Source: an uncultured Ruminococcus sp.
GTDB lineage: Bacteria > Bacillota > Clostridia > Oscillospirales > CAG-272
DNA length: 64,000 bases
Assembly (NCBI GenBank): GCA_964621165.1
Contig: CAZULC010000001.1
Location: 204,281 to 268,280 of the forward strand
Reading direction: 5' to 3'
The notes beneath the pieces are model-generated. The model did no database searches. It was not told the DNA's origin and saw only the letters and a program-made list of their open reading frames with translations. The position numbers and the translations under genes were made by a program. Of the stretch, positions 16,180 through 16,600 are shown in pieces (the stretch's first letter is position 1; each line of letters starts with the position of its first letter).

Positions 16180-16600
16180 GGGATCGGGACGGGTAGTAGT
16201 TCAAATTGATTGGGAGGAGTACGCGCTTCTTGAAAGAAGCTGTGCAAGAATTCTATTCCTCATTCTCCTTCTGGTGAAGCTGGACAGGAAATGCTCACTC
16301 CGAGCTATTCTTTGGGTTTATATTTTGGGAATACCTAAGCGACTAAAATTTAGAATACCAAGGGATCAGGAGGAATTTAATACGGCGGTCCCTGACTGCT
16401 GTCTGCCACTGTGTCCTCGTCCCTTGTATTGCTGCCACTTCCACCGCATCCTTCCTGCTCAACTACAGAATAGCTCGAAGTGACCGCTCCCCTACTCGAC
16501 TGAACGTGATAAAGAATGAGTTTTAAAGTTCCTGCACAGCTTCTTTCAAGAAGTGCGTTCCCCTCATCTCCCCTTAACTCCACCATATGTATCTCCTCAC
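16180..16600. repeat. Family A repeat, copy A4: composite palindromic MITE-like form
   Basis: The forward end module lies at 16221-16262 and the reverse end module at 16511-16562. The arms join at the near-palindrome CGGCGGTCCCTGACTGC (about 16384-16400). Confidence 0.9.

Follow-up and report, generated by a model that had tools for sequence, protein, structure and literature searches.

What is the palindromic element that fills the spacer between mnmE and the DUF4342 gene, and how did it come to be a palindrome? It lies at about positions 16177-16603 of the stretch of DNA analysed here (64,000 nucleotides in full, hereafter the window), which is the chromosome origin region of an uncultured Oscillospiraceae-like member of the Clostridia. 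A first-pass annotation, made from the letters alone, had described it as the complete form of a repeat resembling miniature inverted-repeat transposable elements (MITEs), in which two arms of different subtype meet exactly at a central near-palindrome. We compared the element with its relatives in the window and at orthologous sites in other genomes. It is probably best understood as a member of an abundant, non-coding, mosaic and intergenic repeat family, in which the palindromes of 350-430 bp are centre-deleted derivatives of a longer two-armed element. This is a new family of interspersed palindromic repeat, of a kind comparable to MITEs, to REPINs (repetitive extragenic palindromic sequences forming hairpins) and to BOX elements; our search of the literature returned nothing specific on such a family.

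Compact palindromes within a mosaic repeat family

The arm unit of the family, whose module order was derived from an alignment of 22 arms, is 330-450 nt long and runs leader, A, B, C, D, E, F and then a G1 or a G2 tail. The leader is built of G-rich tandem units of 8-9 nt (GGGGAACG / GGGGAGACG), in some copies with the additional hairpin AACTTCgaaGAAGTT. The end module A (CGCGCTTCTTGAAAGAAGCTGTGCAAGAAC) has 32 nt, is nearly invariant and holds the 16-bp palindrome GCTTCTTGAAAGAAGC; B is of several types; C is either C1 (…CGACTAAAATTTAGAATACCAAGGGATCAGGAG) or C2 (…GGATGCGGTGGAAGTGG…CCTTGACCTGAGGACAC); D is the near-palindrome GGCAGTC-AGG-GACCGCC; E is the hairpin GGAGATAGCttgCTATCTCC and F contains CCCCTGCCTGCCCACGCCGGAT. 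By self-comparison the family covers 5.5 kb of the 64 kb (8.6% of the window), all copies being intergenic, and the census gives 19 arms plus three mini-palindromes of 95-135 bp among the housekeeping genes around the probable replication origin (oriC). Within 4 mismatches A is matched 18 times, 13 on the plus and 5 on the minus strand, and a nineteenth, more divergent A module stands at 49051. Copies of the family range from 95 to 870 bp and can be aligned at the DNA level only, with frame-breaking indels and module swaps. Three of the window copies are compact palindromes with a single D at the junction, and they are laid out as follows (MGDG, monogalactosyldiacylglycerol).

About 16177-16603: D-junction palindrome of the mnmE-DUF4342 spacer, two inverted arms of one repeat family, about 425-427 bp
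16177-16383, plus strand: its left arm, with L1-type leader (16177-16221), A (16222-16251), B (16252-16339) and C1 (16340-16383)
16384-16400: its apex, a single D near-palindrome, GGCGGTC-CCT-GACTGC(T)
16401-16603, minus strand: its right arm, reading L2 leader, A (16528-16557), B and C2; the stop codon of mnmE (16597) adjoins the leader
5226-5663: sister D-junction palindrome flanked by the MGDG-synthase stop and the gidB start, with its apex at 5461-5477, a left arm of type C1 and a right arm of type C2
32790-33175: sister D-junction palindrome of the pfkB-gyrA spacer, its left arm ending 13 nt before D and its apex at 32974-32990

The annotated place was thus right, although its limits (16180-16600) move outwards by a few nucleotides. 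Terminal inverted repeats, expected at about 45 nt, are present in all three copies: 53 nt with 83% complementarity in the mnmE-DUF4342 element (16214-16266 / 16513-16565), 45 nt with 91% in the copy upstream of gidB (5300-5344 / 5588-5632, besides an outer pair at 5226-5243 / 5646-5663) and 50 nt with 88% in the copy upstream of gyrA (32812-32861 / 33111-33160). The two arms indeed belong to different subtypes, with the C1 arm on the left and the C2 arm on the right in 3/3 copies. Partner arms are only 68-73% identical (64-73% in a second comparison), and each of them has a closer relative elsewhere (81-91%); about 100 nt around the apex are alike among the three copies. The string GACTAAAATTTAGAATACCAAGGGATCAGGAG is located at 16341-16372, and the apex string GGCGGTCCCTGACTGC stands exactly at 16384-16399 and at 5461-5476; in the third (32974-32989) the apex reads AGCGATCCCTGACTGC and the forward arm stops 13 nt earlier. 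Allowing at most one mismatch, the near-palindrome pattern GGCRGTCNNNGACYGC gives 19 strand-matches at 11 window sites, against 0.24 expected. Folding was also as the annotation had anticipated: as DNA, 16177-16603 forms one long imperfect hairpin (-68.4 kcal/mol, z = -6.9 relative to shuffles), and as RNA it reaches z = -8.0 on the plus and z = -8.8 on the minus strand, with 0/100 shuffles as good. A chance open reading frame (ORF) of 101 aa (16178-16483) lies inside the element. The compact palindromes are unlikely to be an assembly artefact, because no word common to both orientations of D reaches the length of an assembler k-mer and the form is present at three separate loci.

Longer forms in relatives and probable deletion of the centre

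Exact 29-mer and 27-mer window versions of A had no match in public genome or metagenome collections; a degenerate 24-mer of A retrieved 22 loci in seven metagenome-assembled genomes (MAGs; Eubacteriales, Ructibacterium sp., 'Clostridiales' UMGS1696 and others) plus 13 metagenome contigs. The conserved part at these loci is the G-rich tandem leader together with A, the interior differing between genomes, and the leader (up to six 9-mers in locus L039) usually begins at or over a stop codon. Closer relatives (loci L002, L026, L027 and L041; assemblies GCA_037193765.1 and GCA_037193895.1) were found through homologues of GyrA, MnmE and GidB; they show synteny with the window, and the repeat family is present in them too.

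Relatives possess full two-armed elements of 620-870 bp, whose arms are placed tail to tail with the leaders outward, toward the flanking genes. Two of them, L027 3460-4190 and L041 4364-5187, contain mirrored copies of D and of A, one arm with a G2 and the other with a G1 tail, and a homologous centre. In MAG PUUB42 the elements are as a rule full and two-armed, at about 620 nt (L009, L023); the L009 element folds as DNA with z = -24 and has a colinear centre in common with L011. Arm-to-arm identity in full elements is 70-87%, hence the 64-73% of the compact copies is not anomalous. The compact form is therefore not the complete one that the first-pass annotation took it for: full elements and longer forms at orthologous sites exist in relatives, and arms continue past D. 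One-armed copies, which had been thought to run into different sequence beyond the near-palindrome, do continue there, but what follows is the conserved family modules E, F and G1 or G2. Orthologous spacers that were compared are listed below.

Response regulator-histidine kinase spacer: full element of about 700 nt in L027; 120-nt mini-palindrome in the window
After the tRNA-Ser terminator: long arm with the same start GGAGTGGG in L002; mini form in the window
MGDG-synthase to gidB: one full arm, leader to G2, in L041; D-junction palindrome in the window
mnmE to DUF4342: one full arm beside the conserved DUF4342 promoter flank TTTAATGAAATTTTAATCT in L026 and L027; D-junction palindrome in the window
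Upstream of gyrA: full reverse arm in L002; D-junction palindrome in the window
mreC to the next gene: full element in L041; 30-nt spacer with no element in the window

At 3/3 sites orthologous to the compact copies, then, the relatives carry longer family forms, and 8/8 syntenic spacers compared are occupied in both lineages. A more distant relative (L003, GyrA 75% identical) has no element in its gyrB-pfkB-gyrA spacers. Orthologous arms have identities of 0.65-0.76 and differ in module type; random pairs average 0.70 both within the window genome and between genomes.

We infer from these comparisons that change ran from long to short. The full element would carry D and A in each of its two arms, in inverted orientation. 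A palindrome is its own reverse complement, and since D is palindromic and present in both inverted arms, its two copies are in effect direct repeats. Slipped-strand deletion, or hairpin-stimulated breakage and repair, could then act between the D copies; everything between them would be lost, and one D would be left at the apex of a 350-430-bp palindrome. The same process between the A copies would leave mini-palindromes of 95-135 bp. Palindromes promote deletion by slippage, or via cleavage of hairpin loops by SbcCD.

In-silico deletions give forms like those of the window. Deletion between the mirrored D copies of an 886-nt stretch of L041 yields a product of 432 nt with the apex GACGGCGGTCCCTGACTGCC, the window counterpart being an element of about 427 nt with ACGGCGGTCCCTGACTGCT; deletion between the A copies of the same element yields 129-139 nt with the apex GCTTCTTTCAAGAAGCG. 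Size and architecture match the window forms, and the apexes are nearly identical. The asymmetry of the compact copies, C1 on the left and C2 on the right, is also paralleled by the facing pair of one-armed copies 60432+ (C2) and 61800- (C1, G1 tail). The three mini-palindromes would be the shorter end of the series.

14765-14885: mini-palindrome of the response regulator-histidine kinase spacer, a single A hairpin with a leader on either side
23690-23795: mini-palindrome in which the microhomology CTTC connects the L1 leader and start of A with a reversed L2 leader
36800-36945: mini-palindrome between the tRNA-Ser terminator and the infB terminator

Module A is the apex of the first and the last of these, and one endpoint of the 23690-23795 copy falls within A. 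Their junctions show microhomology: at 36806, GCGCTTCTT is joined to TCAAGGAGCGCG with the crossover in the common GCTTCTT; at 14770, …GAAAGAAGC is joined to TCGTTCC with the crossover in AAGAAGC; and at 23698, GCGCTTC is joined to ACTCAACC with the crossover in CTTC. The D-junction crossovers lie in GGC(R)GTC. Every compact junction in the window thus falls in A or D, the palindromic modules present in both inverted arms. Of roughly 10 rearrangement endpoints catalogued by eye, about 6-7 fell in A or D, which together make up about 10% of an arm. The earlier proposal that the near-palindrome is a rearrangement point on which breakpoints cluster holds in part: all three compact copies have their apex at D, where copy 46692+ is also cut short, but A is a hot spot as well. 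That mosaicism is generated at D alone does not hold, as B2 and C module types assort semi-independently and exchanges must also have taken place at other module boundaries.

Several points weigh against derivation by centre deletion. Only a single full arm is present in the relatives at two of the three sites with compact copies, so that a two-armed ancestor at these sites is supposed rather than seen, and no intact full-length element lies within the 64-kb window. Replacement by gene conversion or re-insertion clearly occurs, because orthologous arms differ in module type and are no more alike than random pairs, and a ready-made compact copy could be delivered in this way. The three D junctions could go back to one event that then spread or to recurrent events, as the data fit either. 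Finally, the relatives' loci come from metagenome assemblies, in which repeats can be misjoined.

Maintenance of the family and alternative explanations

The other arms of the window are as follows.

12079-12420, plus strand: one-armed copy (half element), C2 module, G2 tail
18102-18473, plus strand: one-armed copy, C1 module, G1 tail; upstream of mnmE
25577-25954, plus strand: one-armed copy, C1 module, G1 tail; after dnaA, abutting the DnaA-box cluster
28278-28471, plus strand: arm truncated after module B; after dnaN
28876-29110, minus strand: derivative arm with modules C to E deleted internally, 96% identical to 52799-53016
31402-31872, plus strand: one-armed copy, C1 module, duplicated G1 tail; after gyrB
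44901-45255, plus strand: one-armed copy, G2 tail
46674-46853, plus strand: truncated arm (copy 46692+), ending just past the first half-stem of D, GGCAGTC followed by TACAG
49022-49344, plus strand: divergent one-armed copy; ORF 47712-49064 reads through its leader and stops at the TGA in the A loop
52799-53016, plus strand: derivative arm, twin of 28876-29110
60407-60683, plus strand: one-armed copy (60432+), C2 module; upstream of xpt
61479-61850, minus strand: one-armed copy (61800-), C1 module, G1 tail; downstream of xpt
63290-63622, plus strand: one-armed copy, G2 tail

The derivative arm carries one specific internal deletion at two loci, with a tract of high identity that begins at CGAGGGGAACGCGC inside the leader, and its 96% identity implies that copying happens, and has happened recently. 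In all likelihood the whole family is, or once was, selfish DNA, in which the leader and A end would be the recognition site of a putative enzyme. The one-armed copies are skewed in orientation, 11 on the plus and 2 on the minus strand, on both sides of the likely origin, and L1-type leaders stand on the left in 4/4 cases. A replication-linked orientation bias was considered and rejected, as copies of the same orientation flank the likely origin (the DnaA-box cluster at 25.9-26.6 kb) on both sides.

Tentatively, the family may be not an ordinary decaying MITE but a long-lived, vertically inherited gene-boundary system, whose leader and A would be kept at stop codons across several genera of gut Clostridia either by a single-copy domesticated copying enzyme, in the manner of REPINs and their REP-associated tyrosine transposase (RAYT) though with arms of 300-450 nt, or by host use, such as transcript punctuation or protein binding at gene ends. 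The conservation of A and its placement at stop codons point either to a host role or to continuing selection through a putative copying enzyme.

A reading of the arms as mainly host-maintained and not selfish DNA, with the leader and A hairpin as a gene-end module for transcript 3'-end formation or stability, for insulation or for protein binding, and with the palindromes as two such modules facing each other in one spacer, is doubtful. In its favour, about 32 columns of A show at least 90% conservation in 33 arms, which come from four genomes with MnmE proteins 67-70% and GidB proteins 50% identical; A is found, beside differing interiors, in another seven or more MAGs and metagenomes; and the 8/8 syntenic spacers are occupied in both lineages. 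A long co-directional ORF ends at most 160 nt upstream of A in 57/77 modules, some of which ORFs may be spurious, and in 12 cases the TGA in the A loop is the upstream ORF's stop codon. However, transcription can run in either direction relative to an arm, two convergent terminators enclose one mini copy, and L003 and the window's mreC spacer manage without an element. Folding of a one-armed copy stays at the level of shuffled sequence (z = -0.1 and -1.9), most mismatches between arms are transversions and neither strand shows a wobble bias, the repeat contains no promoter or terminator consensus, and it has no Rfam family match. The absence of an Rfam match, the shuffle-level folds of one-armed copies and the lack of wobble asymmetry also led us to reject a structured RNA; in Rfam 15, neither the window copies nor the relatives' full elements matched at the gathering score, and nothing credible appeared at E <= 1-5.

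As to the stops in the A loop, in 12/77 A modules the upstream long ORF lacks a stop of its own and continues across the leader, which is G-rich and free of T, as far as the TGA in the loop of the A hairpin (CTTCTTGAAAG). These modules belong to the window ORF 47712-49064 and to L005, L006, L008, L010, L013, L014, L019, L024, L026, L037 and L040. Among specific functions, A as a sigma-70 promoter (TTGAAA-17-TTTAAA) was rejected, since its -10 hexamer lacks A2 and T6 and the promoter scan flags no repeat site. Comparison by eye with consensus sequences gave no convincing match to a sigma-54 or extracytoplasmic function (ECF) sigma promoter or to a LexA, CodY or Rex operator. An intrinsic terminator does not fit either, there being no T-run after A and none found in the repeats by the terminator scan, and for a G-quadruplex (G4) leader the window has one canonical motif against 2.4 expected, with longer arrays in some other genomes.

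It is likewise unlikely that the active unit is the two-armed form of 350-430 bp, as a MITE that a transposase from elsewhere in the genome would mobilise in trans and whose broken remnants would be the one-armed copies. The likeness noted in the first-pass annotation is real as far as terminal inverted repeats (45-53 bp), small size and the absence of coding capacity are concerned. The three copies have the same left/right architecture and similar sequence around the apex, the two-armed element of PUUB42 has a fixed centre at two or more loci, so that two-armed units can propagate, the derivative arm attests recent copying, and a full element follows mreC in L041 where the window has only a short spacer. 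Yet no direct duplication flanks any of the six two-armed window copies: checks at 5226/5663, 16177/16603, 32790/33175, 14765/14885, 23690/23795, 36800/36945 and, in L041, 4340/5210 gave no target-site duplication, although the fuzzy outer ends could hide very short ones. The scan of the window proteins gave no match to a transposase, HUH enzyme, reverse transcriptase or Y1_Tnp, and no transposase was present in L032, the one further locus checked for it. All three compact sites hold longer family members in relatives, partner arms resemble each other no more than they resemble arms of other copies, and A has more mismatches in two-armed (mean 1.5) than in one-armed copies (mean 0.7). Other mobile forms considered for the combination of a fixed end with variable tails, namely guide-RNA or IS200/IS605-like elements, one-ended transposition of the IS91 type and 5'-truncated retroelements, were rejected, no supporting gene having been found, and viral contigs, plasmids and phages had no match to the family. 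Cargo was rejected too, since the ORFs between facing arms, judged from their translations, are housekeeping genes, xpt (xanthine phosphoribosyltransferase) and a gene for a small DUF370/RemA-like protein. A RemA-like gene is also present in L003.

That the inverted arm was made or attached at D itself, by a template switch at the D hairpin or by insertion of a second element into D, is very improbable. The junction does lie at a near-palindrome able to prime snap-back synthesis, and relatives are one-armed at two sites. An inverted duplication would nevertheless give identical arms, and the actual arms, of types C1 and C2, are 64-73% identical with relatives of 82-91% elsewhere, so that the template-switch origin suggested by the annotation is largely refuted; nor is there, beyond the inserted arm, the resident E-F-G tail that a nested insertion into D would have left. 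An ectopic inversion is rejected because synteny is intact around two of the compact-copy sites (MGDG-gidB and mnmE-DUF4342).

Genomic setting and comparison with known systems

The window carries rnpA, yidC, jag and mnmE on the minus strand and dnaA, dnaN, gyrB, pfkB and gyrA on the plus strand, together with ParA/ParB genes, gidB, infB, nusA and other housekeeping genes; the closest named relatives of its GyrA are from MAGs labelled Clostridia or Ruminococcaceae/Oscillospiraceae. Five DnaA-box-like sites lie on one strand at 25945-26580 in the dnaA-dnaN spacer, starting where the repeat copy 25577-25954 ends, and this cluster is probably oriC. GC skew is positive on both sides of it. The cumulative GC skew minimum is near 2863-3384, the dus to flavin-reductase spacer, which contains six units of about 40 nt (AGATTATYTTTT…TTATTGCAGAAYTGT) at spacings of 59-124 nt. 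Three tandem 105-nt units, 70-93% identical to a reference copy and each with the palindrome GGGGAAGCCCCCGCGGG, immediately precede the infB start (40095-40410), and infB itself has tandem repeats with periods of 12 and 24 nt (39425-39856) in the part for the low-complexity N-terminus of IF2. Another repeat family, unrelated to the first, is present at 20900-21050 and 58232-58720 (core AAGCCTTTTCAAAGGCTT…GCGACTTCCGCAGAAGTC), the latter copy being two-armed, and a third at 18480-18610, 42715-42905 and 28440-28490 (…GGTCGGCAATGTCCGACTGCGGCAGC…CTGTCGGTGCTACCGACCCCGTGGGGGCTTCCCC), a fragment of which follows the truncated arm 28339+. In the JAZQGP MAG (SGB_1022), at L024 2700-3500 and L010 6550-6800, an A-like module without G-rich leader is followed by the perfect 13-bp hairpin GTGAAATTGATGTTtaaacAACATCAATTTCAC, in tandem arrays of roughly 75-80 nt.

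The family takes up close to a tenth of this region near the origin and is located at the ends of core genes, among them gyrA, gyrB, dnaA, dnaN, mnmE and gidB. The series of full, D-collapsed and A-collapsed elements offers a view of the erosion of long palindromes in a bacterial chromosome. The family is also probably a driver of rearrangements: pfkB (31894-32787) is bracketed in the window by the same-orientation arms 31444+ and 32825+ and is missing between gyrB and gyrA in L002 (2376-3307), a loss that fits deletion by recombination between repeats. In practical terms, the repeat fragments short-read metagenome assemblies and so bears on the binning and completeness of gut Clostridia MAGs; contigs start or end inside it at L001, L002, L004, L012, L013, L015, L017, L022, L025, L029, L032, L035 and L038, and the exact window GyrA also occurs on a Logan contig that terminates within the repeat. 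The near-invariance of the 32-nt A and the abutment of the leader on stop codons across genera are testable.

In the way it works the family comes nearest, among known systems, to REPINs, BOX-type composite repeats, bacterial interspersed mosaic elements (BIMEs) and MITEs, and it is placed in none of these classes because no target-site duplications and no RAYT or parent insertion sequence were found and doublets are not better conserved. The Correia and ERIC/RU-1 (enterobacterial repetitive intergenic consensus) MITEs are small, non-coding and intergenic, with terminal inverted repeats and the ability to supply stop codons. All of these traits are common to the present family, which differs in that no target-site duplication or parent insertion sequence was found and in that the inverted repeats span most of the element.

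With REPINs it has in common a short conserved imperfect palindrome as core, inverted at each end (here A, a 16-bp palindrome in a 32-nt block), and, according to the published descriptions, hairpin-forming doublets beside decaying singlets, a high extragenic copy number and long vertical persistence (PMC3116915; 10.1101/2021.07.10.451892). The arms described here, by contrast, are 10-20 times longer (330-450 nt) and mosaic, with a leader of G-rich tandem units; the scan of window proteins brought up neither a RAYT nor any other Y1/HUH gene; and two-armed copies are not better conserved than one-armed ones, nor does an arm resemble its partner more than it resembles other arms. BOX elements of streptococci (boxA, boxB(n), boxC) are likewise modular, mosaic repeats of Firmicutes with mutually pairing terminal modules and a variable interior (PMC3049150). 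They are predicted to form stem-loops if transcribed and can contribute to the ends of ORFs, and neither clear insertion-site evidence nor a mobilising enzyme has been reported for them (PMC3049150). Compared by description only, our elements are larger, their ends are inverted copies of one module instead of two boxes, and the leader of G-rich tandem units is specific to them. Lastly, although the enterobacterial BIMEs are unrelated in sequence, belong to a different host phylum and have far shorter units, they too are palindromic units in alternating orientation that form mosaic combinations in intergenic spacers (PMC2817692).

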